From IMG/VR virus record IMGVR_UViG_2740892443_000003, positions 1-16,874 of that record: a stretch of DNA of 16,874 nt, one strand, 5' to 3'. Position 1 is the first letter of the stretch, and the number at the start of each line of letters is the position of its first letter. Source of the stretch: a virus. Its lineage: Duplodnaviria; Heunggongvirae; Uroviricota; Caudoviricetes. Made by a program: the position numbers and the translations under genes. This document shows positions 715 through 16,580 of the stretch, piece by piece. The notes below the pieces were generated by a model that did not search any database, was not told the DNA's origin, and was given only the letters and a program-made list of their open reading frames with translations.

Positions 715-753
715 TATGTGAAGTTCTTCGATGGTATGGAAGGCATTACATAA

Positions 754-786
754 AAGAACCTAATACTTATTGGGTTCTTTTTTCTT
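754..786 (+). terminator. Rho-independent terminator after the flank gene
   Basis: Stem AAGAACC (754-760) pairs with GGTTCTT (773-779) around a 12-nt loop, followed by TTTTCTT. Confidence 0.55.
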
Positions 787-1077
787 CTATCAGTGCCATT
801 AGCAGGAAGAGATATCACCGGAGTTTAATGTGTGATTTTTTATTTATCGTCGAACCTGGATTGTTTATCATTGTCCTTAACAAGGCTAACGGCTAATAAG
901 ATTATTTCCATCACTTCGTGAGAGCTTCATGCCTTGATTTGATCTCAATTTTCTTTTGCAATGAGACAGGCGCTTCCTGTTGTTATGGTATAGTACCCCG
1001 CTATTGAGCCTCCTGAACAGTGATGCTGAATAACATAACCCAATGATATATCGATAAAATAATCTCTACATTTGAAA

Positions 1078-1182
1078 ATGCACGGTAATTCTGAAATGCA
1101 AAAAATCAACCAAACCAGCGCAATGCCTGAAAAAACTGACGTTCACTGGAGTGGTCGGTTTAGCGTTGCACCAATGCTCGAT
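1078..1182 (+). repeat. attL-side copy of the dusA 5' segment (chromosomal version)
   Basis: Direct repeat of 15461-15565; about 20 mismatches over 105 nt by manual codon-by-codon alignment. Confidence 0.8.
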
Positions 1183-1200
1183 AGGATGTACCGTTGTTGA
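1078..1200 (+). pseudogene. dusA: Displaced original 5' end of dusA (35 native codons, 5 island-derived codons, then TGA)
   Basis: Translates MHGNSEMQKINQTSAMPEKTDVHWSGRFSVAPMLD-RMYRC*. The first 35 codons are about 81% identical in DNA to the start of the intact dusA at 15461. Similarity ends right after the shared ATGCTCGA at 1174-1181. Confidence 0.85.
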
Positions 1201-1222
1201 AAAACAAGTAGTTATACACTCT

Positions 1223-1243
1223 GTGGGAGCCTATTGGGAACCC
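1223..1243 (+). promoter_or_regulatory. Two direct NTGGGARCC repeats just inside the left junction; candidate integrase or RDF arm-type sites
   Basis: GTGGGAGCC (1223-1231) and TTGGGAACC (1234-1242), 11 bp apart. The same 8-mer TGGGAACC recurs near the right junction at 15408-15415. Confidence 0.35.
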
Positions 1244-1325
1244 GGCGTTTTCATTTCAAGGTGTAATCCATACGCGGCTTAAGAATGAGATATAATGCGA
1301 CTTTTAGTGTTCCGCTTGAGAGGCC

Positions 1326-1862
1326 ATGATGCTTACCCTGGACGAGATAGGTCAATCAGTACGTAACAATATCCAGTTGATTATTGATCATGTCGGCTTA
1401 CCTCTTGCTGTTGGTCCGCTCAGTGATGATGATTACAAGATTCTGTGTGGTGGCTATGGTGAGCTTGAATGGGACTATGCGTTAAGCACCTATGGCAACT
1501 CCAGAGAAAAGTATGAGTTCTGCATAAAACTTGTTCAGCAAGGTCGGGTTCAGGGAATACCATCAGGAGCAGCAATTTGTGTTTATGGGGTTGAAGAAAA
1601 CATCTTTCGTATCCATATGATCGAAAGGTTTTCTAGAGAAGATGAATCTCACCCATTGAAAGGGCGCATGGTTTTACTCACTCTTATGAGTGCTTTTATA
1701 TTTTGTAAAGCTGTTGAATGTAAAGTTGTCCACATTGTAGAGCCAGTACCAGAACTGGTGCAGTATTACGAGTCTTTTGGTTTCCGCATGGAACAGTGCG
1801 GTTATGTGATGTCTGCAGTCATTGATGAGCTGCAGGATATCTTTCTTAAATTTGCTCAGTAG
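1326..1862 (+). CDS. Putative GNAT-fold N-acetyltransferase-like protein, 178 aa (island cargo)
   Basis: ORF with tandem ATGs at 1326 and 1329 and a GAGAGG Shine-Dalgarno. C-terminal region KGRMVLLTLMSAFIFCKAVECKVVHIVEPVPELVQYYESFGFRM resembles the GNAT acetyl-CoA-binding core. Functional call is tentative. Confidence 0.55.
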   Translation: MMLTLDEIGQSVRNNIQLIIDHVGLPLAVGPLSDDDYKILCGGYGELEWDYALSTYGNSREKYEFCIKLVQQGRVQGIPSGAAICVYGVEENIFRIHMIERFSREDESHPLKGRMVLLTLMSAFIFCKAVECKVVHIVEPVPELVQYYESFGFRMEQCGYVMSAVIDELQDIFLKFAQ

Positions 1863-1967
1863 GTATAGACGAGAAGGGTCTACAAATTGTAGGATACCCG
1901 TCCAGATTACCTTAAAGGTACATCTATGGCAGTCGTTTTGTGCTTAAACTACTAAGAAACGATGTCA

Positions 1968-1988
1968 CCAATCGACATGATCGATTGG
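1968..1988 (+). promoter_or_regulatory. Perfect 8-5-8 palindrome CCAATCGA-catga-TCGATTGG upstream of the small ORF; candidate operator
   Basis: Exact inverted repeat read directly from the sequence, 70 bp upstream of the 2059 start codon. Confidence 0.3.
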
Positions 1989-2058
1989 CATAAGTTAGCT
2001 AAACAAGCTAGCTTTAAAGAGAGGGTTAGAGACGCCTTTACTGTCTCGGGAGTTTTCT

Positions 2059-2232
2059 ATGAAAGATCAAAAAGCAACCAAGCCACAGGTTAAGTTCGAC
2101 ACAATGAAAGCATTCGCAGGTATGGGTGCTGCTGTTGAAGTTCTGATGAAGGCTGCTCCTAATGCGTTCACTCACGCTACTGTCTCTGGTAAAGAGCAGC
2201 AGGGTAAGCTTCGTCGTCGCAAAGCAGCATGA
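2059..2232 (+). CDS. Small basic hypothetical protein, 57 aa (below the ORF-track size cutoff)
   Basis: ATG at 2059 preceded by GGGAG, TGA at 2230-2232, strong terminator 20 bp downstream. Translation MKDQKATKPQVKFDTMKAFAGMGAAVEVLMKAAPNAFTHATVSGKEQQGKLRRRKAA. Confidence 0.45.
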   Translation: MKDQKATKPQVKFDTMKAFAGMGAAVEVLMKAAPNAFTHATVSGKEQQGKLRRRKAA

Positions 2233-2250
2233 TCATAGCTGGTGCTTTTT

Positions 2251-2278
2251 GAAAACCCGCCTTTAGGCGGGTTTTTTC
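2251..2278. terminator. Bidirectional rho-independent terminator shared by the small ORF (+) and the leftward operon (-)
   Basis: AAACCCGCC-ttta-GGCGGGTTT hairpin with an A-tract on one side and a T-tract on the other. Confidence 0.8.
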
Positions 2279-2279
2279 T

Positions 2280-2561
2280 TTAGTGATGTTCTTTGCCCTT
2301 CTGTTTGCCTGTTCTGACCTGTTCCCACTCGATACGTCCTTCTTCTCGTCTTTTGTCTATGTATTCCGCAAGATCCTGAATATTGATGCAACGTTTTGCT
2401 TTTTGTGATGTGCCGATGCGATATGTTGGAACGGGCAACTTACAAGCGTTTGCTTTTGCTTCTGCCGTGGCTGGACTCATGCCAAAGTACTTTTGGCTAA
2501 CTGCTGAGAGTTCAATGTTAGGGGTATTGAATTCAGCCATCAGTAAAAACAAGGTGTTCAT
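2280..2561 (-). CDS. PrtN-family (pyocin-activator / AlpA-like) DNA-binding protein, 93 aa
   Basis: MNTLFLLMAEF...KLPVPTYRIGTSQKAKRCINIQDLAEYID matches the PrtN family pattern as I recall it. Start chosen at the ATG at 2559-2561 with GGAG six nt upstream; the ORF-track start at 2588 is a GTG. Confidence 0.65.
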   Translation of the reverse strand: MNTLFLLMAEFNTPNIELSAVSQKYFGMSPATAEAKANACKLPVPTYRIGTSQKAKRCINIQDLAEYIDKRREEGRIEWEQVRTGKQKGKEHH

Positions 2562-2597
2562 AATTTTCTCCATCAAAACCGGCTGCACCCGGGAAAA

Positions 2598-3170
2598 TCA
2601 TAATTCTGTGCTGGTGGCAGGAATTAATTTCTGCCAGATAGCGGAAACATATTTTGCCTGATGACGAGCATCAGCCAGGGCGTTGTGCCGTTCGCCATCG
2701 AAAGGCATGTCCATTTTGGGGTCGAATCCGATGAAACGCCCAAGCGTAACGATCGTGCGTACATCGTGGTCATTCCAGCACGCCCATGGGCAGATTTGTC
2801 CTGCTCGCTCATAAGCCCCACGTAAAATTACGTTGTCGAAGGTGGCTCCGTTACCCCAGACTTTTAAATATTTCGTATTGTCTGCGTGCCGGTTAATGAA
2901 ATGGTTCAGTTCAGAGAGTGCATCGCTGATCGACAAAGTATCATCAATACAGATTGCAGCTCGTGCTTCAGGGCTTTGTTTCAACCACCACAGGATGGTA
3001 TCGCCGTCAGGTGTGGCCCCTTGCTCCATAGCACTTTCCAGGCTGACAACCGTATAGAATTCTTGTCCGATGTCTCCGGTTTCTGGGGTGAAGAACACCG
3101 CGCCAATGGAAACGATTGGTGCATCCTTATTTTTCCCCATCGTCTCAAGGTCGATCATTAAGTTGTTCAT
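2598..3170 (-). CDS. DnaQ-like DEDDh 3'-5' exonuclease, 190 aa
   Basis: N-terminal MIDLETMG (Exo I D-x-E motif) and C-terminal H...D motif. ATG at 3168-3170 with GGAGGT Shine-Dalgarno, overlapping the upstream stop (TGATG). Confidence 0.8.
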   Translation of the reverse strand: MNNLMIDLETMGKNKDAPIVSIGAVFFTPETGDIGQEFYTVVSLESAMEQGATPDGDTILWWLKQSPEARAAICIDDTLSISDALSELNHFINRHADNTKYLKVWGNGATFDNVILRGAYERAGQICPWACWNDHDVRTIVTLGRFIGFDPKMDMPFDGERHNALADARHQAKYVSAIWQKLIPATSTEL

Positions 3171-3919
3171 CACTTCACCTCCTGCGGCGGTTCCGGTAGC
3201 GGCATCCAGTGAGTTGCTTGCTCAATACCATTACCCGGCTTAATCGTTGCATCTCCGCGCCGAAAGGTGCTTCCGGTATAGCGTGCGGAGCATATTAGCG
3301 GTTCAACCAGAGAGCTATCGAAATTCACCGAAATAAGCACGTTCTGGCCCTTTTCAGGCATTCGATCACTACAGCTTATCCAACTATCCGGAGTTCCTGG
3401 AGAGTTGCCACCGGGAATATTTTCCGGAATATTTTGTTGTGCGTTTTGTGGTTGTTCGGATTTACCCTGAAGCATGGCGGCTCGGCAGGCATCACTGCGA
3501 ACTTCAATCCCCGCCTTATCCAACGCAAGCAACAAACCTCGTTCGCTGTCTCCGCAGTCGTCCAGTGTGTCATTGAGCACCGAAAGCGCTTTTTCGAAAT
3601 CTTCATCGTGAATAGCGAGCGGCACAGCCACCGCTGGCTGCGGTAACTGTGGTGCTGTGTAGAGTGGCGTAACACTGATTTCGTATTCGTTAATATCTTC
3701 ATCGCTGATAGATGCATCAAAGCTTAAAAAGCCAGGTCTACCGAGACCACGGGCCTGTGCGTCCTGGATGATGTACGCCACAGCCTCAGCTTCGAGCGAT
3801 GCCAGTGCGATACGCGCCAGCTCTTTGACAACATCACAGTTTTTATTTCCTTCGCAATCATCCATCAAAAGCCAATCGTCATTGATTATTTCTTTAATCT
3901 TATCCCGTGAAAGTTCCAT
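3170..3919 (-). CDS. Phage protein with C-terminal DUF551-like domain, 249 aa
   Basis: C-terminal WISCSDRMPEKGQNVLIS...HWMPLPEPP resembles DUF551. GGGGGTG Shine-Dalgarno before the ATG at 3917-3919. Confidence 0.65.
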   Translation of the reverse strand: MELSRDKIKEIINDDWLLMDDCEGNKNCDVVKELARIALASLEAEAVAYIIQDAQARGLGRPGFLSFDASISDEDINEYEISVTPLYTAPQLPQPAVAVPLAIHDEDFEKALSVLNDTLDDCGDSERGLLLALDKAGIEVRSDACRAAMLQGKSEQPQNAQQNIPENIPGGNSPGTPDSWISCSDRMPEKGQNVLISVNFDSSLVEPLICSARYTGSTFRRGDATIKPGNGIEQATHWMPLPEPPQEVK

Positions 3920-4119
3920 TATTTCACCCCCTTAGCTTTTCGTTCTGCTTCACTAAAATCCCAATCAACACGATGCGATATTTCAATGGCCGCCCTAACT
4001 GAATGTTCAATCATGATGTCGAGCCTTTGAAGTGTCATAGCCATATTTGGATTTCGAGCCAATATTTCTGCGCGAAGAATTTGCCAGTCATTGCATGTTT
4101 CAAGTAATGAATTAGCCAT
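3919..4119 (-). CDS. Small hypothetical protein, 66 aa
   Basis: Internal ATG (4117-4119) of the 85-aa track ORF, chosen to avoid a 65-nt overlap with the upstream gene. Weak Shine-Dalgarno. Confidence 0.35.
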   Translation of the reverse strand: MANSLLETCNDWQILRAEILARNPNMAMTLQRLDIMIEHSVRAAIEISHRVDWDFSEAERKAKGVK

Positions 4120-4621
4120 TATCTTTACCCCGCGTGCCATATGCTGATAAGCACTCTTCAAATCCAGCCTGATCATCCGTTTGACCTAAACTGAAGCCAT
4201 GCTGAAGACCATGACGAAATGCGCTATCCTGTAATTTGTCTGCAGATTCTAGTTTCAACTCCAGTTCAGCAATCCGCTCCTCATACCGAGCGCCAACGGA
4301 AACGGCTTTATGGAAGGCTTCGCACCATTTGGACGATTGCGCCTGCATCTTCTCCAGCTCATCCAGCAGCGCCAAGACGGTAGCCGGATTGGCTGCGGCG
4401 ATGAATTCAGCATTGGCCTGCTGTTCCATTTGGAAATCTTCATCGAAACCGCTTTCTGGATGCGCTCCTTCAATTCTGCAAATAGGAATATATCCAGCAA
4501 CTTCACGATGAATTAGTGCATCATCACCATCAAATCGGCCATCTCCATATTCGAGCGACCACTCGCCACTCGTTGCTTTTTCTGCCGCCTCACGCAGTGC
4601 CTGATAGTTAATTTTGGTCAT
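4112..4621 (-). CDS. Phage early protein, possibly Ead/Ea22-like, 169 aa
   Basis: Intact ORF in operon register. The motif ANAEFIAAANPATVLALLDELE and a coiled-coil-like C-terminus recall Ea22-like prophage proteins (memory only). Confidence 0.55.
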   Translation of the reverse strand: MTKINYQALREAAEKATSGEWSLEYGDGRFDGDDALIHREVAGYIPICRIEGAHPESGFDEDFQMEQQANAEFIAAANPATVLALLDELEKMQAQSSKWCEAFHKAVSVGARYEERIAELELKLESADKLQDSAFRHGLQHGFSLGQTDDQAGFEECLSAYGTRGKDNG

Positions 4622-4622
4622 A

Positions 4623-4922
4623 TCACATCACCCTGAAGCCGTTGCATTTACGTAAAAAATCGCAGATATAGCCCTTCATTTTTTCGTGCCAATCTCGATC
4701 ATTCCCATTGCACCAACCATCAGGTGGAGTCCAGTTTTCTATCAGAGCAGCCATTTTCTTTGCTTTCGCCGGAGTAGCTGTTGCGGTATCGCAGTAATGA
4801 CGAGTGTCAACCAACGTATCCATACCATCGATATCAAGTACGCAAAACCATGTGTGATTCGGCATTTCAACAGATGGTATTTGTTGCCCACGTCGACGTT
4901 TATCAATAAGACATACAGTCAC
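4623..4922 (-). CDS. Hypothetical protein, up to 99 aa; start uncertain (GTG overlapping the upstream stop)
   Basis: ORF in operon register. Size is close to YfdT of CPS-53 (101 aa) but no sequence recognised. Confidence 0.4.
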   Translation of the reverse strand: MTVCLIDKRRRGQQIPSVEMPNHTWFCVLDIDGMDTLVDTRHYCDTATATPAKAKKMAALIENWTPPDGWCNGNDRDWHEKMKGYICDFLRKCNGFRVM

Positions 4923-5497
4923 TGGTTGCCTCCTTTGCGAAGCTGGTCGGCGATATCTTCGAGAACGCCATCAGAGAATGAGCGGTCAAAATCGCCTTCC
5001 GGCGCATTAGCCATAAAATCAGTAGAGGTAAGAATCATCCTGGCAATATCCGCGGCGTTCTTCGCAGTATCATCAATAAAACCAGCTCCCCAGGCAGCCA
5101 TCATTCTGTTCGCCACAAAGTAAGCGCCCTCCTTGCGTGCTTCAGTCTTCACTTCAGCCAGAAAGGCGTCGGTGGCTGGGGTTTCGCTGTGGTGCAGGGC
5201 ATCGTTGATAATCATTGCAGCAACTCCGGCCTGCCCTGCATCCGTGACCGACACATGCTCAAGAGTTACAGCCATTGCATGTTTAAGCCCCGCATTCTCA
5301 GAAGCCAGCTCCGCGCACTTGTCCTCAATGTTATCAATCGTGATTCCAGCAGAACGACACTCCCGCAACGCCGTTTCTAGTTTTGATTCAAGTTCACCGA
5401 ACTTACGGACAAGATATTCAGCGTTTGTTTCATTCACTTTCAGATCTCGTGGTACACATTTCCCGCGAAGAAACCCTTCCATTTCGAAAACATTCAT
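4919..5497 (-). CDS. Hypothetical phage early protein, 192 aa
   Basis: ATG at 5495-5497 overlaps the upstream stop (ATGA coupling). No family recognised. Confidence 0.55.
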   Translation of the reverse strand: MNVFEMEGFLRGKCVPRDLKVNETNAEYLVRKFGELESKLETALRECRSAGITIDNIEDKCAELASENAGLKHAMAVTLEHVSVTDAGQAGVAAMIINDALHHSETPATDAFLAEVKTEARKEGAYFVANRMMAAWGAGFIDDTAKNAADIARMILTSTDFMANAPEGDFDRSFSDGVLEDIADQLRKGGNQ

Positions 5498-6030
5498 GCG
5501 CATTTGCGTAACTCCGATAACTCGTTAAAACGTTCCATAAACATCCCGTAGGCATGGCCCGGTGCCAGTGGAATCACGTTGAACATCTCTGTTGCCGGGA
5601 TGCCTTCCAGTACAGGCCAGAAAGAGCCATCATCAAGCCCGAGATCGCGGCGTTCGGTTGCCAGCATGATGAGATCGGCATATTTCACAGGCGTGCTCAT
5701 AACCGGGGGTAACCCGTATTTCTCACGGATTACGGCGTCTATTTTTTCTTCCATTCGTTTATAGTCAGGAAGAAGGCGTTTCAGTGGTGCGGGGATGTCC
5801 TGGCAATACGCTTCTGTTGCATCATGCATTAACGCTTCAAAAGCAAATTCCTGCGGTACCAGCTGGCTGCAAAGCACCGCATGTTGGGCGACGCTGTAGA
5901 AGTGTGAAAGATGGCCGGCAAAGCGACATATATTTGAAAGGGAAACCGCGATATCGTTAATATCGATGCTGTCTTTATTTATCCTGTCATAATAAAAATG
6001 CTTCCCGGAAAAAGTTTTAATAAATGACAT
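5494..6030 (-). CDS. yfdR: HD-domain phosphohydrolase, YfdR-like, 178 aa
   Basis: H...HD motifs (CRFAGH, SVAQHAV, EALMHDATEAY). ATG at 6028-6030 with GGAGAA Shine-Dalgarno gives 178 aa, the size of CPS-53 YfdR. Sits downstream of YfdP- and YfdQ-sized genes. Confidence 0.75.
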   Translation of the reverse strand: MSFIKTFSGKHFYYDRINKDSIDINDIAVSLSNICRFAGHLSHFYSVAQHAVLCSQLVPQEFAFEALMHDATEAYCQDIPAPLKRLLPDYKRMEEKIDAVIREKYGLPPVMSTPVKYADLIMLATERRDLGLDDGSFWPVLEGIPATEMFNVIPLAPGHAYGMFMERFNELSELRKCA

Positions 6031-6086
6031 TTTGTTCTCCACGTTATATGCGCTGCACCGCGCTGAATTTTGGTTAAAGAAAACCC

Positions 6087-6146
6087 TCGCCTTCAGGCGA
6101 TTATTGAGTCAATTACGTTTCCATAAATGCCCCCGCAGGGGCATTT
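6087..6146 (-). other. Two GC-rich hairpins in the yfdQ-yfdR spacer; possible attenuator or RNA-stability element
   Basis: TCGCC-ttca-GGCGA (6087-6100), followed on the minus strand by GGGTTTTCTTT; and the perfect AAATGCCCC-cgca-GGGGCATTT (6125-6146). Confidence 0.35.
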
Positions 6147-6158
6147 GCGGTAATGAAA

Positions 6159-6983
6159 TCAGGCGGTGAAAGTCCCAATAAAGGTTTCTACTTTGCTGTC
6201 CTTGAATTTCTCAACAAGCAGATCACGAAATTCGTTAGCCATATCTTCCTGCACCGCTTCCAGCTGAATAATGCGTAGAACCAGTACCGGACGATCGCCA
6301 GTGATAATGCTGAGGCGTAATTTAAACGGACGTTCTTTCAGACCTTCAAACGGAACGCATTTAAACTCAAATGCCACTGGCATAATGTCTTTGGTCTTCG
6401 CTTCGACAGACTCCATCAGGGAGCGTTTGCCGCTGAAGTCATTATCTTCAAAATCAGCAGTCTGGTTTGCTTCAATTGTGATTTTACGGACTGCCGCAGC
6501 CGCTTTGGTTGCCTGAATGGTGTCACCATTAGCATCAAAGCCCACAAGGTAGTCGGCCCAGTCTTCAATCCATTCTGCCAGTGACTTCTGGGAGTTACGC
6601 TCGCCGTTAACAGACAACAGGGCAGAGAACGGTGCTGTCTTTTTCAGTTTGAGAGTGGCGGTGTTATCTGCGTGACCTGGTTCATCAATAGTACCCAGGT
6701 TAAGCACACTGACTGCTCGCATATTATCGGCATCGATAAAGCAGCGGGTGCCTTCATCTGCAAGATCTTTAGAATAACGGGTAAAGTCATCGATGCTGGC
6801 AGTGGAAAGCGCACCACGGAAACGGAAGCGATTTAAATTAAATTTTTCCAGATCATGAATGCGGAAATTCTCAGGCAATGCCACAGCATCGGCACCAATC
6901 TTACTGATAATTTCATTAACACCCTGAGCAGAAATAAGGGCATGGATTTGATTAATTGCGGTTGCGTCTAAGTTCTGAGACAT
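6159..6983 (-). CDS. yfdQ: YfdQ-like (DUF2303-type) prophage protein, 274 aa
   Basis: Exact size of CPS-53 YfdQ and the same position in a yfdP-yfdQ-yfdR order. GTGAGGA Shine-Dalgarno. Sequence identity itself not checked. Confidence 0.7.
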
Positions 6984-7048
6984 AATAAGTCCTCACTATA
7001 TAAAGATATTCAGTGATGAGATAAATAATCGGTTAATTAAGAACGATA

Positions 7049-7411
7049 TTAATGACCTGCTGCGCGGAGTTTTCCGTCAGGTTCACCGGCAAGAGTCAGT
7101 AATTGTCCCTGGTCTTCCTGCAGAATAGTCAGGCGACCACCGCGATTGACATACATCGGCGTTTCGGTGGTGTCTTCTTCGGAAATTTTCCCGCGGTTAG
7201 TCGGGCGAACATATGAGAGTTTGTGTTTGATTTTCACACGGTTCTCATCAAATGGTTCGATTTCCAGGTTGAGTGAGACCTTACCTTTGGTTTTCGTGTT
7301 CATCACACCTGAAGCGACTTCACTGAGAACTGCGCCGATTTTGGTTTCAAATACGCCGCCGTCCAACTCCCCGATAAATGCCTGCACATCAGTACTGCGT
7401 TCGCTAGCCAT
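7049..7411 (-). CDS. yfdP: YfdP-like prophage protein, 120 aa
   Basis: Start placed at the internal ATG (7409-7411), which has a GAGGAG Shine-Dalgarno 7 nt upstream. The 182-aa track ORF extends upstream through a structured noncoding region. Confidence 0.6.
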   Translation of the reverse strand: MASERSTDVQAFIGELDGGVFETKIGAVLSEVASGVMNTKTKGKVSLNLEIEPFDENRVKIKHKLSYVRPTNRGKISEEDTTETPMYVNRGGRLTILQEDQGQLLTLAGEPDGKLRAAGH

Positions 7412-7460
7412 TTTGCTGCTCCTCATCATATCGACCCTGCAAGGTCGGTTGGTTTCTCCA

Positions 7461-7547
7461 CAAAACAGAGAAGAACACCTGCGGTGGCAGCCGCCCGGAT
7501 GGATTGGGTTATGAGCCCGTCGTCCGGTGATGCTCTTCTCTGTTTTG
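7461..7547 (-). repeat. Long inverted repeat in the early-operon leader: 14-bp perfect arms, 59-bp spacer
   Basis: CAAAACAGAGAAGA (7461-7474) is the exact reverse complement of TCTTCTCTGTTTTG (7534-7547). Lies 50-135 bp upstream of the yfdP start. Confidence 0.5.
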
Positions 7548-7594
7548 TAAAAAGAGCGGTACCAGCCGGAAGCAAGTGTACAAACTGGTACCGC
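7548..7594 (-). terminator. Candidate intrinsic terminator or OL-like operator in the leftward leader
   Basis: GCGGTACCAG (7556-7565) and CTGGTACCGC (7585-7594) are exact inverted repeats; on the minus strand they are followed by TCTTTTTA. The arms contain the GGTACC core seen in the cI/cro operators. Confidence 0.4.
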
Positions 7595-8026
7595 CAAAGC
7601 AGTGGCTGTTGTGGTGACCGGTGCTGATCTCCGGCTTGCGGTTATTTCAGACTCTCACTGGCGTTTAATTGCCCCGCCGAACAGCTCTTTTCCGCAATAG
7701 CTGCAATGTCTTTCGCGCATCAGCCTGCGCATTCACCACAACGCTGAGAGCACTTAGCCAGTTACGGCACCACACTTTGTCGCGGTTCCATAAATGCCCT
7801 CATCGTTGCACCCTGGTCTCTTCCCAGGTGTCAAACCGAACCGCCACGCTGGTTAGGCGTCTTATCAGCATCATCATTGACTTGCACATTCCGGCTACCT
7901 GGTTTGTTTGCCCGAGCAAGGAGTGGATTGTCCCCTTTAACGTCCCCAGACCGCTAACGACGCATGTGCCATACGCCGTGTTACAACCAAATTTTGTTTA
8001 ATCTTGCCTGTGACATGTTTCTTTTA

Positions 8027-8059
8027 GATACATTATGTATCTCAAGGGTACATTGTCAA
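8027..8059 (-). promoter_or_regulatory. PL-like leftward promoter with overlapping operator palindrome
   Basis: Minus-strand -35 TTGACA (plus 8054-8059), 16-bp spacer, -10 CATAAT (plus 8032-8037). The perfect palindrome GATACA-tta-TGTATC (8027-8041) overlaps the -10, and GGTACATT lies at the -35. Confidence 0.5.
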
Positions 8060-8061
8060 GT

Positions 8062-8086
8062 ATAAAAAAACCTGCCGAAGCAGGTT
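8062..8086 (-). terminator. Rho-independent terminator of the cI-like gene
   Basis: AACCTGC-cgaa-GCAGGTT hairpin followed on the minus strand by seven T residues, 12 bp after the cI stop. Confidence 0.75.
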
Positions 8087-8097
8087 ATAAATATTGA

Positions 8098-8772
8098 TTA
8101 GGCCTTTATTTTGTATCTTCTTGGTTTTCCTGAGAAAATTACTGTACCAATTATAGAGCAATTACCGTTGATCTTAATGTAAGGTTCAGGCCAGTTTGGG
8201 TTTAATGCTTTGAGGTAACGCTGTGTTCCATCTTCTATCAACCGCTTAAAGGTGGTTTCGCCTGTATCGTGCATCAATGCAATAACGTCGTCACCGTGGC
8301 AGGCAGGGACTTCAGGATCTACAAAAATCATGTCTCCCGGGCGGTACTCATCAATCATTGAATCACCAATCACCCGCAAGATATAAGTCATTTCGCCACA
8401 GGGTACAGGGCAGGGATAAGTTTCTGCTGTGCTCAAATCAACCTCAGAATAGCCAACTTCTTTCCATGCTCCGGCCTGTACCCATGATATGACAGGGACT
8501 AACGTTATTTGTTTGTTAGTGATTGAAACGTCAGGTTTTTTTGTGATGTTCGTTGTCTGGTGTTCTTGATCAAGCCATCCGACAGGCAGGTCGAAACATT
8601 TTTCGATGTGCCGTGCCATGCTGTCACCGATATTTTTAGTTGCACCATCTCCCATAAACCTGCTGGTCTGGGTTGGCTCGCGATCAATCATGGTGGCAAA
8701 GGAAGAATTCCCGCCAACACCATCTCTCAGTTTTCTGGCGTTAGACCGCCGGATGTCATGGACTGTTTTCAT
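8098..8772 (-). CDS. Lambda-cI/LexA-type autocleavable repressor (S24 peptidase C-terminal domain), 224 aa
   Basis: VQAG cleavage-site motif, GDSM serine nucleophile, TFKRL lysine. C-terminus aligns by eye to lambda cI ([22 protein letters not shown] versus TFKRLIEDGTQRYLKALNPNWP). N-terminal HTH region. Confidence 0.9.
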   Translation of the reverse strand: MKTVHDIRRSNARKLRDGVGGNSSFATMIDREPTQTSRFMGDGATKNIGDSMARHIEKCFDLPVGWLDQEHQTTNITKKPDVSITNKQITLVPVISWVQAGAWKEVGYSEVDLSTAETYPCPVPCGEMTYILRVIGDSMIDEYRPGDMIFVDPEVPACHGDDVIALMHDTGETTFKRLIEDGTQRYLKALNPNWPEPYIKINGNCSIIGTVIFSGKPRRYKIKA

Positions 8773-8788
8773 AAAGAAATTAAAACCT

Positions 8789-8807
8789 TTGTACCGATAA
8801 GGTACAA
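8789..8807. promoter_or_regulatory. Operator palindrome TTGTACC-gataa-GGTACAA in the cI/cro intergenic region
   Basis: Perfect 7-5-7 inverted repeat lying over the predicted -35 regions of the divergent promoters. Confidence 0.6.
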
Positions 8808-8812
8808 GTATC

Positions 8813-8840
8813 TTGAAGGTTCATCTCAATCATGTAATAT
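8813..8840 (+). promoter_or_regulatory. PR-like promoter for the cro/baseplate operon
   Basis: -35 TTGAAG (8813-8818), 16-bp spacer, -10 TAATAT (8835-8840). Confidence 0.45.
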
Positions 8841-8859
8841 GTATACCGGAGGTACATAT
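8837..8859. promoter_or_regulatory. Second operator-like palindrome ATATGTA-N9-TACATAT overlapping the PR -10 and transcription start
   Basis: Exact inverted half-sites at 8837-8843 and 8853-8859. Shares the TGTA / GGTACA core with the 8789 and 8027 sites. Confidence 0.45.
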
Positions 8860-8862
8860 TGT

Positions 8863-9231
8863 ATGAAAGCGTATTGGGACTCTTTAACCAAAGAACAGCA
8901 GGGTGAGTTGGCCGGAAAAGTTGGCTCAACACCAGGCTACTTACGGCTGGTTTTCAATGGTTATAAAAAAGCCAGTTTTGTGCTGGCTAAAAAACTTGAG
9001 CAATGCACGTCAGGTGCAATTACGAAATCTGACTTAAGACCGGATATCAACACGCGCCTTGAACAGTCTGCACGGATCATTCAGCGCACGCCGGATGAGG
9101 TTTTACCCGCGCTGGTGCTGGCGGCGACCTGGTTTGATAACGCGGCGCGTGACGCGGACATTATCCGGCGTAATGCCATTACGCATCCCGGCTTTGTGCC
9201 GGTGATCCCTCTGAAGGTGCCAGTGCAATGA
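8863..9231 (+). CDS. Cro/YdaS-like HTH regulator with a C-terminal extension, 122 aa
   Basis: GGAGG Shine-Dalgarno then ATG at 8863. GSTPGYLRLVFNG...SGAITKSDLRPDI fits the YdaS/Cro HTH pattern. The last ~45 codons are GC-rich like the structural genes. The stop overlaps the next start (ATGA at 9228-9231). Confidence 0.6.
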   Translation: MKAYWDSLTKEQQGELAGKVGSTPGYLRLVFNGYKKASFVLAKKLEQCTSGAITKSDLRPDINTRLEQSARIIQRTPDEVLPALVLAATWFDNAARDADIIRRNAITHPGFVPVIPLKVPVQ

Positions 9232-10307
9232 ACGACAATGTCACGCTACGGGTAAATGGCCGGGAGTGGAATGGCTGGACATCGGTGCGCATCGGTGCCG
9301 GTATTGAACGGCTGGCGCGGGATTTCAGTGTGGAGATCACTCGCCAATGGCCGGGAGATGAGGGTATCACCACGCTTCAGCCGCGCATTAAAAACGGTTC
9401 AAAAGTGGAAGTGCTAATTGGTGATGAGCTGGTGATCACCGGCTGGGTGGAGGCGACTCCCGTTCGTTACGATGCCCGTTCGGTCAGCACCGGTATTGCC
9501 GGACGTAGTCTGACGGCTGACCTGATTGACTGTGCAGCCGAACCGACACAGTTTAACGGACGCTCGCTGGTGCAGATTGCGCAGGCGCTTGCTGCACCTT
9601 TCGGCATTGAGGTGGTGAACAGCGGTGCGCCGTCGGGTGTTATTCCTGATGTTCAGCCTGATCACGGTGAAACGGTGATTGAGGTAATCAACAAAATACT
9701 CGGTCAGCAGCAGGCGCTGGCTTACGACGACCCGCACGGCAGGCTGGTGATTGGCGGTATTGGCTCAACGCGGGCACATACCGCGCTGGTACTTGGGGAA
9801 AACATCCTTTCCTGCGATACGGAGAAGAGTATCCGGGAGCGGTTTTCTGTTTACCAGGTGGCGGGGCAGCGTGCCGGAAACGACGATGATTTCGGTGAGG
9901 CCACCACAACTGCGCTGCGGGCCCGCACAGAGGACGCATTTATTGCCCGTTACCGTCCGATGTATATCAGGCAGACAGGGCAGGCCACGGGGGCAGGCTG
10001 TATTGCGCGTGCTGACTTTGAAGCCCGACAACGGGCGGCGCGGACGGATGAAACCACTTATGTGGTGCAGGGCTGGCGACAGGGTAACGGTACGCTGTGG
10101 CAGCCCAACCAGCGGGTGATTGTCTTCGATCCGGTCTGTGGTTTCGACAATACCGAACTGCTTGTTTCGGAAGTCACGTTTACTCAGGACCAGAACGGCA
10201 CCCTGACGGAAATCCGTGTCGGCCCGCCTGATGCTTATCTGCCTGAACCCGAAGATCCCGGCGCGCGGAAAAAGAAAAAAGCCAGAGTACAGGAGGACCC
10301 GTTCTGA
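9228..10307 (+). CDS. Baseplate hub protein (Mu gp44 / P2 gpD-like), 359 aa
   Basis: Size and position immediately upstream of a gpV-like gene in conserved Mu/P2 baseplate order; family membership not confirmed by motif. High GC. Translationally coupled on both sides. Confidence 0.6.
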   Translation: MNDNVTLRVNGREWNGWTSVRIGAGIERLARDFSVEITRQWPGDEGITTLQPRIKNGSKVEVLIGDELVITGWVEATPVRYDARSVSTGIAGRSLTADLIDCAAEPTQFNGRSLVQIAQALAAPFGIEVVNSGAPSGVIPDVQPDHGETVIEVINKILGQQQALAYDDPHGRLVIGGIGSTRAHTALVLGENILSCDTEKSIRERFSVYQVAGQRAGNDDDFGEATTTALRARTEDAFIARYRPMYIRQTGQATGAGCIARADFEARQRAARTDETTYVVQGWRQGNGTLWQPNQRVIVFDPVCGFDNTELLVSEVTFTQDQNGTLTEIRVGPPDAYLPEPEDPGARKKKKARVQEDPF

Positions 10308-10855
10308 TGAGGGCGATTGAAGCCATGCAGCGACAACTCCTCGGCCTGATTGGGCGGGCCGTGGTGAAAAGCATCAGTGCCGCCACGAAATGTCAGACCG
10401 TGGATGTGTCCCTGATTGCCGGTGAACCCAAAGCCGGGGTTGAACATCTTGAACCCTACGGTTTTACCGCAAGGGCAAACAGCGGTGCGGAAGCGGTGGT
10501 GTTGTTTCCGGATGGCGACCGTTCTCATGCGGTGGTTGTTACGGTGTCGGACCGGCGCTACCGCCTGAAAGGGCTGCAGACGGGTGAGGTGGCTGTCTAT
10601 GACGATCAGGGGCAGTCCGTGACGCTGACCCGGGAGGGGATCGTGGTGGACGGTGCAGGTAAAACGATCACGTTTCGCAATTCACCTAAAGCACGTTTTG
10701 AAATGGACCTGGAAGTGACAGGACAGGTGAAAGACCTGTGCGACTCCAGCGGCACTACCATGTCAGCGATGCGGCTTGCCTATAACGGGCATCGTCACAG
10801 AGAGAACGGTCAGGGCAGTAACACCGACAAACCGGATAAAGCGATGGAGGCATGA
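10307..10855 (+). CDS. Baseplate spike / assembly protein V-like (Mu gp45), 182 aa
   Basis: gpV-like features including a C-terminal YNGHRH motif comparable to LHTHKH in P2 gpV. AGGAGG Shine-Dalgarno. TGATG overlap with the upstream stop. Confidence 0.7.
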   Translation: MRAIEAMQRQLLGLIGRAVVKSISAATKCQTVDVSLIAGEPKAGVEHLEPYGFTARANSGAEAVVLFPDGDRSHAVVVTVSDRRYRLKGLQTGEVAVYDDQGQSVTLTREGIVVDGAGKTITFRNSPKARFEMDLEVTGQVKDLCDSSGTTMSAMRLAYNGHRHRENGQGSNTDKPDKAMEA

Positions 10856-11280
10856 TGGAACTGTGGCTGACGGTGAACGGTAAACGCACCTGCGCCAGCG
10901 CACCGCTGGATCCGCTGACCCGCGCCGTGGTGATTTCCCTGTTTACCTGGCGGCGGGCGGAGCCTGATGACAACGCCGACGTCCCGATGGGATGGTGGGG
11001 GGATACCTGGCCTGCGGTACAGAATGACCGTTACGGCTCCCGACTGTGGCTGCTTCAGCGCAGCAAACTGACCAATCAGCTGGTGCAGACAGTAAGGGGG
11101 TATATCCGCGAATGCCTGCAATGGATGATTGATGACGGTGTGGTGTCCCGTATTGATCTGGATATCCGCCGCACCGGGATTAATGAGCTGGGTAACAGTA
11201 TCACCCTCTGGCGTCGTGACGGACCGGTAATGATTTCTTTTGATGATCTGTGGAGTGCGATAACGCATGGCGGACAGTGA
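10852..11280 (+). CDS. GP46/gpW-type baseplate wedge protein (T4 gp25-like), 142 aa
   Basis: Size and position in conserved order. GGAGG Shine-Dalgarno. Overlaps neighbours on both sides. Confidence 0.65.
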   Translation: MMELWLTVNGKRTCASAPLDPLTRAVVISLFTWRRAEPDDNADVPMGWWGDTWPAVQNDRYGSRLWLLQRSKLTNQLVQTVRGYIRECLQWMIDDGVVSRIDLDIRRTGINELGNSITLWRRDGPVMISFDDLWSAITHGGQ

Positions 11281-12325
11281 ATTTCAGCGCCCGACGCTGG
11301 CAGAAAATATCAGTATGCTCCGTAACGATTTATTCGCCAGGCTGGACGTCAGCGACACGCTCCGGCGCATGGATGAAGACGTGCGGGCAAAGGTGTATGC
11401 GGCGGCGCTGCATACGGTTTACGGTTACATCGATTATCTGGCAATGAACATGCTGCCTGATCTGTGCGATGAGTCCTGGCTGGCGCGACATGCTGCGATG
11501 AAACGGTGTCCGCGCAAGGGGGCCACGGCTGCCAGCGGGTATATGCGCTGGGAAGGTGTCAGCGATGGCCTGAAGGTGACCGCCGGGAGTGTTATTCAGC
11601 GCGATGACCTGGTTCAGTACACGGCAACTGCCGATGCAACCAGCACTGGTGGTGTCCTGCGTGTGCCGATCACTTGCTCAACTACAGGCGCGGTCGGTAA
11701 CGCTGACGACGGTACGGCATTAATCCTGGTCACACCGGTGAATGGTCTGCCGTCTTCCGGTGTGGCTGACACCCTGACAGGCGGATTTGATACTGAAGAG
11801 CTGGAAACGTGGCGCGCCCGCGTCATTGAGCGGTATTACTGGACGCCTCAGGGCGGGGCTGACGGGGACTATGTCGTCTGGGCTAAAGAAGTGCCCGGCA
11901 TTACCCGCGCATGGACATACCGACACTGGATGGGAACGGGGACTGTCGGTGTGATGATTGCCAGCAGTGACCTGATTAATCCCATTCCGGAAGAGTCAAC
12001 GGAAACGGCGGCAAGACAACATATCGAGCCACTGGCCCCGGTGGCAGGCTCTGATTTGTATGTATTCAGGCCGGTGGCGCATAAAGTGGATTTTCATATC
12101 CGCGTGACGCCGGACACACCGGAAATACGGGCTGCCATCACCGCCGAGTTGCGTTCGTTCCTGCTGCGTGATGGTTATCCGCAGGGAGAACTGAAGGTGT
12201 CACGTATCAGTGAAGCGATTTCCGGTGCGAACGGGGAATACAGCCATCAGTTGCTTGCCCCGGCGGACAATATCTCCATTGCAAAAAATGAGCTGGCGGT
12301 TCTGGGGACGATTTCATGGACGTGA
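11267..12325 (+). CDS. Baseplate J-like protein (Mu gp47 / P2 gpJ), 352 aa
   Basis: Typical size and position. Overlaps neighbours by 14 and 10 nt. Confidence 0.75.
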
Positions 12326-12900
12326 CAAACGATGATTATATCCGTCTGTTGTCGGCACTGTTGCCGCCCGGTCCGGCGTGGTCAGTCAGCGATCCGGCGA
12401 TTGCCGGTGCGGCACCGTCATTAACCCGCGTTCATCAGCGTGCGGATGCCCTGATGCGGGAGCTGGATCCGCGCACCACCACTGAACTGATAAACCGCTG
12501 GGAGCGTCTGTGCGGTCTGCCGGATGAATGTATTCCCGCAGGGACACAGACCCTTCGCCAGCGTCAGCAACGGCTGGATGCGAAGGTTAATCTGGCGGGC
12601 GGCATCAATGAGGATTTTTATCTTGCACAGCTTGCTGCCCTGGGCAGACCAGACGCCACTATCACGCGATACGATAAAAGCACGTTCACCTGCTCATCGG
12701 CCTGTACTGACGCGGTGAATGCGCCGGAATGGCGGTATTACTGGCAGGTCAACATGCCAGCCGCCACCAACACCACCTGGATGACATGTGGCGATCCCTG
12801 TGATTCCGCACTGCGTATCTGGGGCGACACCGTTGTCGAGTGTGTGCTTAACAAACTCTGCCCGTCGCATACCTACGTAATTTTTAAATATCCGGAGTAA
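12316..12900 (+). CDS. Mu gp48 / P2 gpI-like tail protein (YmfQ-like, DUF2313-type), 194 aa
   Basis: Same length as e14 YmfQ (from memory). Sits between the J-like gene and the tail fibre. Confidence 0.7.
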
Positions 12901-12903
12901 TCC

Positions 12904-13551
12904 ATGCATCGTATAGACACGAAAACCGCGCAGAAGGATAAGTTCGGCGCGGGTAAGAACGGTTTTACCCGTGGTAATCCCCAGACTGGTACGCCTGCCA
13001 CCGATCTGGATGATGACTACTTTGACATGTTGCAGGAGGAGCTTTGCAGCGTTGTGGAGGCATCCGGTGCCAGCCTGGAGAAGGGGCGGTATGACCAGTT
13101 GCTTACCGCACTTCGCGCACTGCTGTTAAGCCGCAATAATCCGTTTGGTGATATCAAATCGGACGGCACGGTACCAACGGCTCTCAAAAACCTTGGTTTA
13201 GGAGAAGCGGCGAAAAGGGATGTGGGCACAGGAGATAATCAGATACCGGATATGGGAGCATTCGCTTCTGGTTCGGGATGGTTCAGGCTACCAGGTGGAT
13301 ATATTGTTCAGTTTGGCACTTTTTCAGGAAACACGACCCGCTTTATCAGTGGACACTTCCCTATACCATTCCCTAATCAGCCGATGGTTTCAGTCAGTGT
13401 TATGTCTGATGCCGTTCAGTCAGACCCGTCGAATCCTGCCCCGCAGGTTTTGTCTGTAAATTTTGAACATATCAGTAATTCAGCGTGGCGTGTGGCAACC
13501 AGTGATATCTCACAGCAATACAGATTCAGTTATATTTCGATAGGACGGTAG
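12904..13551 (+). CDS. Short tail fibre protein, 215 aa (conserved N-terminal domain plus variable C-terminal part)
   Basis: [47 protein letters not shown] is the conserved phage tail-fibre N-terminus. GGAG Shine-Dalgarno. Confidence 0.75.
13181..13206. other. Gin/Pin/Hin-type (Din family) 26-bp crossover-site-like sequence inside the tail-fibre gene
   Basis: CTCTCAAAAACC-TT-GGTTTAGGAGAA is an imperfect palindrome with the AAACC-NN-GGTTT core. It matches hixL (TTCTTGAAAACCAAGGTTTTTGATAA, from memory) at 9 of 12 positions in each half. Confidence 0.5.
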
Positions 13552-13553
13552 AA

Positions 13554-13994
13554 ATGCAGAAATATATTTTCAGTGCCGATAAAAATGCGTTTTTCCCTGT
13601 GGAGCTTAAAATCGCTTATCAGGAATCCGGCGAATGGCCCGATGATGGAATCGAAATTGACGACACTGTTGCCGCCGAATTTATGAAGGAAGCACCAGAA
13701 GGAAAATACAGAGGTGTCATCGACGGAATGCCAGCATGGATTGATATTCCACCGCCAACTCATGAGGAACAAATTGCCGCAGCCGAACTGGAAAAGCAGC
13801 AATTGATTAATCAGGTCAACGAATACATAAACAGTAAGCAATGGCCTGGTAAAGCGGCGATTGGTCGCCTGAAAGGTGAGAAACTGGCGCAATATAATTT
13901 GTGGCTGGATTATCTGGACGCACTGGAGCTGGTCGATACTTCCGGTGCGCCAGATATTGAATGGCCTACGCCTCCGGCAGTTCAGGCCAGATGA
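13554..13994 (+). CDS. Tail fibre assembly chaperone (Tfa, Mu U / lambda Tfa-like), 146 aa
   Basis: MQKYIFSADKNAFFP... with a C-terminal ...PDIEWPTPP motif typical of Tfa proteins. Confidence 0.8.
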   Translation: MQKYIFSADKNAFFPVELKIAYQESGEWPDDGIEIDDTVAAEFMKEAPEGKYRGVIDGMPAWIDIPPPTHEEQIAAAELEKQQLINQVNEYINSKQWPGKAAIGRLKGEKLAQYNLWLDYLDALELVDTSGAPDIEWPTPPAVQAR

Positions 13995-15372: not shown

Positions 15373-15392
15373 TACACGACCTCGTTATTTCG

Positions 15393-15427
15393 GGTTCCCA
15401 TAAAACGTGGGAACCTGTGCGGGAACC
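15393..15427. promoter_or_regulatory. Palindrome GGTTCCCA-N7-TGGGAACC plus a third GGGAACC copy between int and dusA; candidate operator or arm-type site
   Basis: Exact 8-bp inverted arms at 15393-15400 and 15408-15415, with GGGAACC again at 15421-15427. Lies 20-55 bp upstream of the int start and 35-70 bp upstream of dusA. Confidence 0.4.
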
Positions 15428-15460
15428 TAACGCGAGAAAAATAGCCTGAAATGTTCAAAA

Positions 15461-15565
15461 ATGCACGATAATCATGAAACACAAAAAATTAATCAAACCA
15501 GCGTGATGCCTGAAAAAACTGGTGTTTACTGGAATTCTCGGTTTAGCATTGCTCCTATGCTCGAC
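15461..15565 (+). repeat. attR-side copy of the dusA 5' segment (island-supplied replacement)
   Basis: About 81% identical to 1078-1182; continuous with the rest of dusA. Confidence 0.8.
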
Positions 15566-16498: not shown

Positions 16499-16527
16499 CT
16501 TTTCACCAAAAAGTAGTCAAATTCACC

Positions 16528-16557: not shown

Positions 16558-16580
16558 CTGTTAAATCAATAGATTATTTT

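Follow-up and report, generated by a model that had tools for sequence, protein, structure and literature searches.

The DNA analyzed here comprises positions 1 to 16,874 of the IMG/VR record IMGVR_UViG_2740892443_000003 (the window; 16,874 nucleotides [nt] in all) and is a lambdoid Escherichia coli prophage. Our subject is the interval from 7412 to 8061, which lies between yfdP and the repressor gene ymfK and forms the leader of a leftward operon. The cI-like ymfK occupies 8098-8772 on the minus strand, the cro-like ymfT runs from 8864 on the plus strand, and the PRM/PR region lies between them. To the left of the leader, on the minus strand, are yfdP (7411-7049), yfdQ, yfdR, more small genes, an exonuclease gene, and an excisionase gene. 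The interval between yfdP and ymfK has no annotation in RefSeq or from the Prokaryotic Genome Annotation Pipeline (PGAP). We find that this leader is not a spacer: it is pieced together from RNA modules that are conserved, tRNA-related, and mobile independently of one another, and its features exceed what chance would give because their stems covary across related phages. A preliminary description had listed here a leftward promoter overlapped by a palindrome, a long stretch without an open reading frame (ORF), a terminator-like inverted repeat, and a long hairpin; all of these features were found again, at the positions it gave or 1-2 nt away.

The part of the leader without a conserved ORF measures ~475 nt and consists of a 5′ RNA module (module A), a closing helix (helix H), and a tRNA-like core. 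No ORF on the transcribed strand exceeds 39 codons from 8020 to 7600: the largest have 25-39 codons, the longest of these begin with TTG or GTG, and a Pfam search of the leader ORFs gave zero matches. Indels of 1, 3, 4, and 7 nt separate the leader from its relatives and break the ORF frames. With PGAP blank as well, these results bear out the ORF-less stretch of ~470 nt claimed in the preliminary description. A mechanical ORF list extended yfdP by 62 codons from a TTG at 7597 (7049-7597, minus strand), through both the terminator and the long hairpin. This extension is an artefact, as the annotated start is the ATG at 7411, with a GAGGAG Shine-Dalgarno (SD) sequence before it. In a near-identical prophage of E. 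coli C7, a number is missing from the locus-tag series where the leader lies, between yfdP and ymfK, a hint that an ORF once called there was withdrawn. A pair encoding a DarT ADP-ribosyltransferase and a NADAR antitoxin adjoins the integrase end of that prophage, outside the prophage itself (locus L001, 3186-4502).

The tRNA-like core occupies 7742-7608 on the minus strand and is closed by stem P1 (7742-7734 / 7616-7608). Within this stem follow an AAU linker (7733-7731), a D-arm-like hairpin, GCGC[AGGCUGAU]GCGC, with a 4-bp stem and an 8-nt loop (7730-7715), a variable insert of 79 nt (7714-7636), and a T-arm-like hairpin, GCCGG[AGAUCAGCA]CCGGU, whose 5-bp stem is continuous with the 3′ strand of stem P1 (7635-7617). 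Across loci, the last hairpin reads GCCGG[AGAUCAGCA]CCGGC and likewise leads straight into the 3′ strand of stem P1. We searched for other copies with the exact 19-mer AATGCGCAGGCTGATGCGC (7733-7715, minus strand). Nearly all loci with this 19-mer have a stem P1 that differs in sequence yet is complementary, then the AAU linker, the D-arm-like hairpin, an insert, and the T-arm-like hairpin, with inserts of 26-384 nt (median 78) and stem P1 lengths of 6-14 bp.

Covariation was examined in 70 distinct cores from which the insert had been excised. Stem P1 was 93% paired, and seven of its eight pairs had compensatory changes, with four to five pair types each; slid controls were 28-44% paired, and none of 500 shuffles attained the observed score. 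The search for the 3′ strand was anchored on the second hairpin and required at least 5 of 7 stem P1 pairs, which brings a mild selection bias into these values; 123 of 126 sites passed, and in the loci that we inspected the canonical second hairpin appeared unique. Compensatory changes were also found in stem P3, and in a diverged core from an array in P1-like phages both hairpin stems had them. The two loops of the core are mutually complementary (GCUGA/UCAGC), and a degenerate-pattern scan recovered variants that keep this pairing: ACUGA/UCAGU in two independent lineages and GUCGA/UCGAC in a third. Four further hits of that scan (L370, L371, L373, and L374) were chance matches without a core. 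G-U pairs are frequent on the strand of the core only, which points to a structure of RNA rather than of DNA. Minimum free energy (MFE) folding of the core gives a cloverleaf-like shape, and the single-sequence folding energy is not significant either for the core (z = -1.4) or for the leader as a whole (z = -0.9), so the case for the core rests on covariation and not on energy. Overall, these data show a four-way junction with the connectivity of tRNA, in which the closing stem is acceptor-like and the loop-loop pairing mimics the tRNA elbow. By its connectivity, and by pairings that agree between covariation and MFE folding, the predicted fold is tRNA-like.

The covariance-model check proposed in the preliminary description found no known family at the core. 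With Rfam 15 (4227 models) at the gathering score, the window and 28 related loci yielded only true tRNAs; at E ≤ 10, only weak chance hits were added, such as STnc370 on the cI terminator. The leftward-promoter leaders of ST64B (L365, 1230-1420) and phiNP (L367, 1190-1450) carry variant cores in the same slot, which in ST64B read GAAU-GCGGCUCAGCGC ... CCGGGAGGCACCCGG followed by the 3′ strand of stem P1. The loops of these variant cores are not complementary. The family is therefore broader than the 19-mer search shows. One core insert (L012, ~+90 to +150 from the 19-mer) contains CUGAUGAGGCC...GGCCGAAAC...GUC, a hammerhead-like catalytic core that scores below the Rfam gathering threshold.

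An RNA from this position has been detected in cells. sRNA-17 is a 193-nt RNA of E. coli K1 strain RS218, encoded by an mEp460-like prophage beside yfdP and identified by 5′ and 3′ rapid amplification of cDNA ends (RACE) and Northern blotting (Sun et al. 2020, Front Microbiol 11:574833, PMC7719688), where it was reported to have "no homolog in Rfam". We mapped the primers and probes of that study onto the window, and 13 of the 13 tested matched with 0-1 mismatch. The full-length primers fall at 7550-7581 (plus strand) and 7743-7711 (minus strand) with 0 mismatches, the Northern probe at 7632-7681 with 1 mismatch, and the deletion arms at 7561-7599 and 7756-7718. Here mEp460 is 99-100% identical to the window (99.3-100% in the identity test). 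Judged by these matches, the RNA of the window is sRNA-17 itself, with core and terminator together spanning 7743-7550 (minus strand). It terminates at the U-tract at 7550; its 5′ end at 7743 lies at the boundary of helix H and stem P1, 1 nt before the extended stem P1. Of the options raised in the preliminary description, a terminated noncoding RNA (ncRNA) is hence supported, since the published RACE and Northern RNA ends at the very U-tract that it had marked. It had also expected a leftward transcript of ~470 nt ending near 7550: the end was right, and the stable product is only the 3′ 193 nt. The amplicon used for quantitative reverse transcription-PCR spans 7992-7597, and therefore a longer transcript covering module A and the core must exist. 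The PL context, the tRNA-like fold, the upstream modules, and the spread beyond enterobacteria are not described in the sRNA-17 paper (PMC7719688).

Upstream of the core, two further elements complete the leader. Module A (7981-7812, minus strand) is ~80% identical to the spacer between tRNA-Ile and ban in P1 and P7, and to the same extent to epsilon15-like phages (phiV10 and TL-2011b), where it lies upstream of tRNA-Arg. Its invariant 22-mer, CCAGGTAGCCGGAATGTGCAAG (7902-7881), has exact copies in more than 120 viral contigs, from lambdoid, P1-like, and epsilon15-like phages and a few divergent classes. RNAalifold on 12 representatives showed that hairpins 7860-7846 and 7828-7812 covary (e.g., CG/GC 6:6 and UA/CG 6:6), alongside an invariant core; the diversity of module A is too low to fix the rest of its structure. 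Helix H (7808-7795 / 7752-7739, minus strand) closes a variable hairpin, and its 3′ strand leads straight into the core. In the window, 13 of its 14 positions pair. Of 114 distinct loci, 27 form a helix here from unrelated sequence, with no fewer than 13 of 14 pairs (the best score of shuffled sequences averages 10.5), and compensatory changes separate the window from IME207, HK620, and swi2. From these comparisons, a helix whose 3′ strand abuts stem P1 is a general feature of core loci. The hairpins that helix H encloses often carry a T-arm-like GGUUCGAAUCC.

A sensitive BLAST search of 8060-7413 against phage genomes split the region into pieces of separate distribution: the 5′ module A, a central piece, a block of ~40 nt, and a 3′ piece that travels with yfdP. 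The central piece has 96% identity to the T1-like IME207 and to P1-like plasmid phages, and the ~40-nt block is kept at ~90% identity across many unrelated phages. In the phage records matched by BLAST, these pieces have no consistent annotation.

Exact copies of AATGCGCAGGCTGATGCGC were found in more than 120 IMG/VR contigs and in more than 120 species-representative bacterial genomes, in both cases among the matches listed. The genomes include Gamma-, Beta-, and Alphaproteobacteria, Desulfobacterota, and Bdellovibrionota, and a few contigs were assigned to Bacteroidota, Saccharibacteria, and Coriobacteriia. The core lies downstream of cI-type repressors on the same strand at 25 loci (versus 2 on the opposite strand), between Q/pR′ and the lysis genes in HK620 and others, and also in virulent T1-like, N4-like, and Vi1-like phages. 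Clustering of the neighboring genes revealed no protein that constantly accompanies the core; only the cI/PL and Q/lysis contexts recur. A terminator-like hairpin follows within 130 nt at 23 of 98 viral loci (6 in control windows) and at 15 of 80 genomic loci (5 in control windows), and some cores are followed by an SD sequence and ATG. Among complete E. coli genomes, 586 of 5,426 (~11%) carry at least 80% of sRNA-17, and the RefSeq records that we sampled have no annotation for it. We found no description of the core motif in a text search of the literature with the conserved sequences, nor under GOLLD/ROOL, structured-RNA catalogues, Pas sRNAs, or transfer-messenger RNA (tmRNA).

The resemblance to tRNA extends to genomic context. 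As in tRNA, the acceptor-like stem of the window has 7 bp (7739-7733 / 7617-7611), the linker 2-3 nt, the D-stem 4 bp, the D-loop 8 nt, and the T-like stem, which is continuous with the 3′ acceptor strand, 5 bp; both have a loop-loop elbow. The core differs from tRNA in having no anticodon arm, in place of which stands the variable insert, and in an elbow that is a Watson-Crick kiss of 5-6 bp. Genes for tRNA occur no more than 1.5 kb from the core in 21 of 126 loci; there are 38 of them, and 37 share its strand. A true tRNA-Arg comes next after module A and helix H in phiV10. Its first base is equivalent to window position 7739, and it takes the slot that the core fills in the window. That the core is itself a true tRNA was ruled out by the missing anticodon arm, the 9-nt T-like loop, the lack of CCA, and the lack of a call by any detector. 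P1-like phages (RCS47, JL22, and locus L103, -250 to +830 from the core) have tRNA-Asn and tRNA-Thr, then four tandem units of helix H and core, two of them with diverged loops. GenBank records label this stretch "putative lipoprotein Plp", probably a spurious ORF call over structured RNA.

At some loci the likeness is to tmRNA. In HK620 (L005, 2306-2338) and eight others (L007, L043, L060, L066, L079, L116, L119, and L120), a lookalike of the mRNA-like domain of tmRNA lies on the same strand, 164-682 nt upstream of the core. These relatives, T1-like phages among them, carry the same canonical core. The domain has an invariant ...GAAACUGAYCACAAAGAUAAAU, then GCA AAC GA. and a stop (resume context AUAAAU|GCA AAC GA.), and encodes the tag peptides ANEEMYLAVA, ANDEQFLAVA, ANDDVVLMAA, and ANDDLMLMAA; between copies, third codon positions change synonymously. 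As tmRNA, these relatives score 20-26 bits with Infernal, below the gathering score of 47, and none is called by ARAGORN. Two further tag hits were set aside: that in L037 (ANDEPQQEDLAAA) is the C-terminus of a real protein, and that in L077 (ANDSSQASA) lacks the conserved resume context. An ARAGORN "tmRNA" in swi2 is an artefact built on a neighboring tRNA-Met. In the window itself there was no tmRNA call by ARAGORN, no Rfam tmRNA hit, and no tag-like ORF upstream of the core, where module A takes the tag slot. The tRNA-like domain is common to the family and tmRNA; the context of a tag ORF is found only in the relatives. Differences from tmRNA also include a closing stem without G3-U70 (by eye, in the two copies from the window and HK620), an encoded CCA after the closing stem in HK620 only and not in the window, swi2, or L060 (also by eye), and a domain order unlike that of either one-piece or permuted tmRNA. 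We accordingly do not class the window RNA as tmRNA.

Transcription of the leader can be placed from the right-hand end of the interval. The repressor gene ymfK ends in an intrinsic terminator (8086-8062, minus strand), with the stem AACCUGC-UUCG-GCAGGUU at 8086-8069 and then UUUUUUU. Beyond it lies a PL-type (early leftward) sigma-70 promoter at 8059-8032 on the minus strand, with TTGACA (8059-8054) as -35, a 16-nt spacer, and CATAAT (8037-8032) as -10. It agrees with consensus at 11 of 12 positions, in keeping with the near-consensus promoter of the preliminary description, and is the sole site of such quality on the minus strand from 8059 to 7300. The predicted transcription start is near 8025. 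Two adjoining 17-bp operators cover 8016-8052, TGTTTC-N5-GATACA at 8016-8032 and TGTATC-N5-GGTACA at 8036-8052, and related copies lie in the PRM/PR region at 8790-8806, 8807-8823, and 8840-8856 (repeat family D1; inverted repeats I1, I3, and I6), making five copies in the window. The palindrome GATACAttaTGTATC that had been described as overlapping the promoter is present at 8027-8041 and is better read as the junction of the two operators. With hexamers overlapped by operators common to PR/PRM, the site has the makings of a repressor-controlled PL, as far as its sequence can tell.

At the other end of the leader, the inverted repeat with a T-tract (7548-7594 in the preliminary description) proved to be an intrinsic terminator, or attenuator, at 7594-7550 on the minus strand. 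It has a 10-bp stem (7594-7585 / 7565-7556) with 7 G-C pairs, a 19-nt loop, and UCUUUUU; a simple terminator scan missed it because of a loop limit of 8 nt. The GC-rich hairpin and U-tract coincide with the published 3′ RACE end at 7550 (PMC7719688). In ST64B, phiNP, and Kp4866-6, the terminator stem differs in sequence, is still complementary, and is always followed by CUUUUUACA. Next comes a long hairpin (7552-7456, minus strand), in which a stem of ~24 bp closes a three-way junction; its RNAfold energy gives z = -5.1 against shuffles. The preliminary description had given it 14-bp perfect arms: the hairpin is there, the arms are of 15 nt (7548-7534 / 7474-7460), and the folded stem reaches ~24 bp. 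It had also proposed a search for conservation of this region in related elements, and the hairpin is indeed kept, with compensatory stem changes, in ST64B, phiNP, and Kp4866-6. Against the outcomes that it had named as refuting its reading, a translated gene or unconserved repeats, the comparison shows no conserved ORF and inverted repeats that are conserved with compensatory changes. The predicted duplex of ~24 bp, conserved in this way, is a candidate RNase III site, on which RNase III may act.

The long hairpin follows the terminator and belongs to the yfdP module: terminator and hairpin travel with yfdP in SfV, SfII, SfIV, ST64B, phiNP, and Kp4866-6. The layout of the window recurs in ST64B and phiNP, where the repressor and PL come first, then 0.8-1.0 kb of ornate leader containing helix H and a variant core, and after it the terminator, the long hairpin, and homologues of yfdP/yfdQ. 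The CPS-53 element of K-12 has only the last ~30 nt before yfdP in common with the window, and therefore K-12 data are unhelpful. The 5′ untranslated region of yfdP (7455-7412, minus strand) contains a small hairpin (7447-7432) and the SD sequence at 7424-7419. Just upstream of the ribosome-binding site of yfdP, one arm of the three-way junction contains GGGCUCAUAACCC (7518-7506, minus strand), which with its flanks is identical at 17 of 19 nt to the anticodon arm of the E. coli initiator tRNA metZ (tRNA-fMet), including the three G-C pairs. The element is kept in phiNP and, but for a single change in the loop, in ST64B and Kp4866-6. Possible readings of it are a tRNA remnant, an operator of the MetRS/IF3 type, or a decoy for nucleases that cleave initiator tRNA.

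The explanation that we consider best, and on balance probable, is that the leader combines the early-left (PL-type) control region of a lambdoid prophage with an ncRNA gene, downstream of it, that is built like a tRNA-operon cassette. Upon loss of repressor, RNA polymerase would start near 8025 and most transcripts would end at 7550. The primary RNA would be cut at the boundary of helix H and core by the host machinery for tRNA 5′ processing, most likely RNase P, releasing stable sRNA-17; RNA processing of the leader, which the preliminary description had allowed for, is plausible. Read-through transcripts would pass into the ~24-bp hairpin with its candidate RNase III site and then into yfdPQRS, so that the terminator at 7550 would attenuate the early-left operon. 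As for a role in trans, the RNA would probably owe its stability, and access to host factors that bind tRNA, to its tRNA-shaped body, and the variable insert would hold any lineage-specific activity.

Several observations weigh against this explanation. The 9-nt T-like loop of the core has no T-psi-C, no CCA is encoded in the window, and the closing stem ranges over 6-14 bp. Tools do not call the core a tRNA: ARAGORN found none in the window, and the Rfam tRNA model gave no hit on the core at E ≤ 10. Stems P2 and P3 are almost invariant in sequence, for which mimicry of shape alone is no explanation. The phiV10 tRNA predicts a 5′ end 3-4 nt downstream of the one that RACE gave at 7743, which could instead be a primary end, and sRNA-17 retains its 3′ terminator, and therefore its 3′ maturation is not tRNA-like. 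sRNA-17 was seen in an uninduced lysogen, where PL should be repressed, and was interpreted as an ArcA-regulated, trans-acting sRNA with its own promoter within 7743-7992 (PMC7719688). That fragment, used as the "promoter" in gel shifts, corresponds to module A plus helix H. Within it, in CGUUAGCGGUCUGGGGACGUUAAAG, GTTA direct repeats at 7935-7959 (minus strand) are what we take to be the reported ArcA box, for which the paper gives no coordinates. This segment of module A is nearly invariant in P1/P7 and largely kept in phiV10, which has lost one GTTA repeat of the two; the motif could alternatively be explained by conservation of the RNA. In the sRNA-17 deletion mutant, yfdP was up 95-fold (PMC7719688). 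Most simply, this rise is a cis effect of the inserted resistance cassette. The cat gene is presumably oriented toward yfdP, as we take it from the pKD3 primer design. Confounded by the cassette, the rise neither supports nor refutes an attenuator role.

Four other explanations were considered, and we hold all of them to be less likely than a PL-driven ncRNA of the tRNA-cassette type. The leader could be a cis-acting processive antiterminator like put of HK022, whose nascent RNA binds polymerase and allows read-through of 7550 into yfdPQRS in place of N. Its conserved position between PL and terminator, an early-left operon in which a gene search found no N-like gene, the same core in the late pR′ leader of HK620 ahead of tQ, and near-invariant loops that would suit binding to a conserved host enzyme all fit this proposal; put is likewise a cis RNA of PL/PR leaders in a lambdoid phage without N. 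However, put consists of two stem-loops of ~70 nt just past PL and PR, a V-shaped pair with no closing stem and thus a different fold and architecture, and the HK022 genome has no match to either conserved hairpin with up to 3 mismatches. Moreover, the late terminator of HK620 is already served by Q/qut, virulent phages (T1-like, N4-like, and Vi1-like) have the core in tRNA clusters or directly before a terminator with no operon behind, and here a discrete RNA accumulates that ends at the terminator. We therefore did not assign the leader to put, and the antitermination option of the preliminary description, with no N-like gene and no put-like sequence to back it, is unsupported; we judge it improbable. 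We give slightly less weight still to a riboswitch-type ligand sensor in which the stem P1 helix controls the downstream terminator or ribosome-binding site. A covarying stem P1 around highly conserved hairpins with a loop-loop tertiary contact is what such a sensor would look like, and a terminator (at ~20-25% of loci) or an SD-ATG is often within tens of nt. Yet we saw by eye no complementarity between the 3′ strand of stem P1 and the terminator in the window, L011, L033, L051, or L060, the downstream genes vary (yfdP, lysis genes, tRNAs, or nothing), cores are arrayed in tandem behind tRNAs, and in phiV10 a true tRNA sits in the same slot.

The remaining two explanations dispense with a functional RNA. 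It is very unlikely, in our view, that the palindromes act as DNA (as protein sites, junctions of mosaic recombination, or hairpins in single-stranded DNA) with the RNA incidental. The GCGC/GCGC and GCCGG/CCGGC stems are nearly invariant and do not covary, loop 2 includes GATC, mosaic junctions fall at module boundaries, and binding of phosphorylated ArcA (ArcA-P) to 7743-7992 has been reported (PMC7719688). That shift took 20-80 µM protein, however, and a stable RNA with defined ends was seen in the same study (PMC7719688). Orientation follows transcription, matching that of the tRNAs in 37 of 38 cases and that of upstream cI genes in 25 against 2, and the many G-U pairs of stem P1, stem P3, and the loop-loop contact would turn into A-C mismatches if read from the opposite strand. 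Least credible of all is a small protein gene or decayed pseudogene, such as the plus-strand ORF of 110 codons at 7669-8001 or an ORF of 39 codons at 7919-7800. Mechanical ORFs are present, some phage records annotate short hypothetical proteins, and records of P1-like phages name the core "Plp lipoprotein"; but the ORFs in these records differ and are mutually incompatible, PGAP calls none and Pfam matches none, indels of 1, 4, and 7 nt separate the relatives, and conservation tracks base pairing, not codons.

Among known RNAs, CI RNA of P4 and C4 RNA of P1/P7 are close in arrangement. These are small stable RNAs cut by RNase P from the leader of an early phage operon, cloverleaf-like, and positioned upstream of a terminator that controls the downstream genes. 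The likeness to our case is that of a cloverleaf-like RNA in an early operon leader before a terminator. In contrast, the loops of C4 and CI pair with target sites in the same transcript and vary between heteroimmune phages, whereas here the loops pair with each other and are near-invariant across phyla, and the Rfam C4 family has no match either at the gathering score or at E ≤ 10. The PL leader of lambda holds nutL, an RNase III hairpin, and tL1 at the same map position, and has likewise a long duplex before the ribosome-binding site of the first gene and a terminator in the leader; here, there is no N gene, a search gave no boxA/boxB hit, and the order is ncRNA, terminator, hairpin, gene. 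GOLLD, ROOL, and phi29 pRNA are similarly ornate and phage-borne, often lie by tRNAs, and have variable 5′ domains, and differ in that our loci have no Rfam match to them and hosts that are mainly Proteobacteria. In ROOL/GOLLD cages and pRNA rings, loops pair between molecules (PMC12286853). By analogy, the loops of the core, being complementary, could pair between molecules in the same manner.

The existence of sRNA-17 is already published and is not new. To our knowledge, within the literature that could be searched, no one has described that it lies in a PL context, that its architecture is modular and tRNA-like, or that it belongs to a very widespread, near-invariant phage RNA family absent from Rfam 15; the core motif may be present, unnamed, in large catalogues of structured-RNA candidates such as PMC10690425. 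The core is a new candidate Rfam family, and its members include model phages (P1-like, HK620, T1-like, N4-like, Vi1-like, and Stx phages). It also exposes likely mis-annotations, among them the "Plp" ORF of P1-like phages and assorted "hypothetical proteins". The sole published study of sRNA-17 has handled it as an ordinary base-pairing sRNA, and its place as a PL-driven 3′ domain, its tRNA-like architecture, and its family change the reading of the published phenotypes. Clusters of tRNAs, tmRNA-like tags, and a mimic of the initiator-tRNA anticodon arm together suggest a broader phage strategy directed at host translation or at immunity that targets tRNA. More speculatively, and as a possibility that we regard as doubtful, sRNA-17 may stand for a whole pan-bacterial class of tRNA mimics carried by phages, of which it would be the first seen in an experiment. 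Such RNAs would be built of helix H and a four-way-junction core with a Watson-Crick elbow, have relatives that carry true tRNAs or tmRNA-type tag domains in the cassette, and act on the host machinery of tRNA and trans-translation. If so, they could be decoys or inhibitors of tRNA-directed antiphage nucleases or hijackers of RNase P, SmpB, or EF-Tu; alternatively, they could self-assemble through their complementary loops, like pRNA and ROOL.

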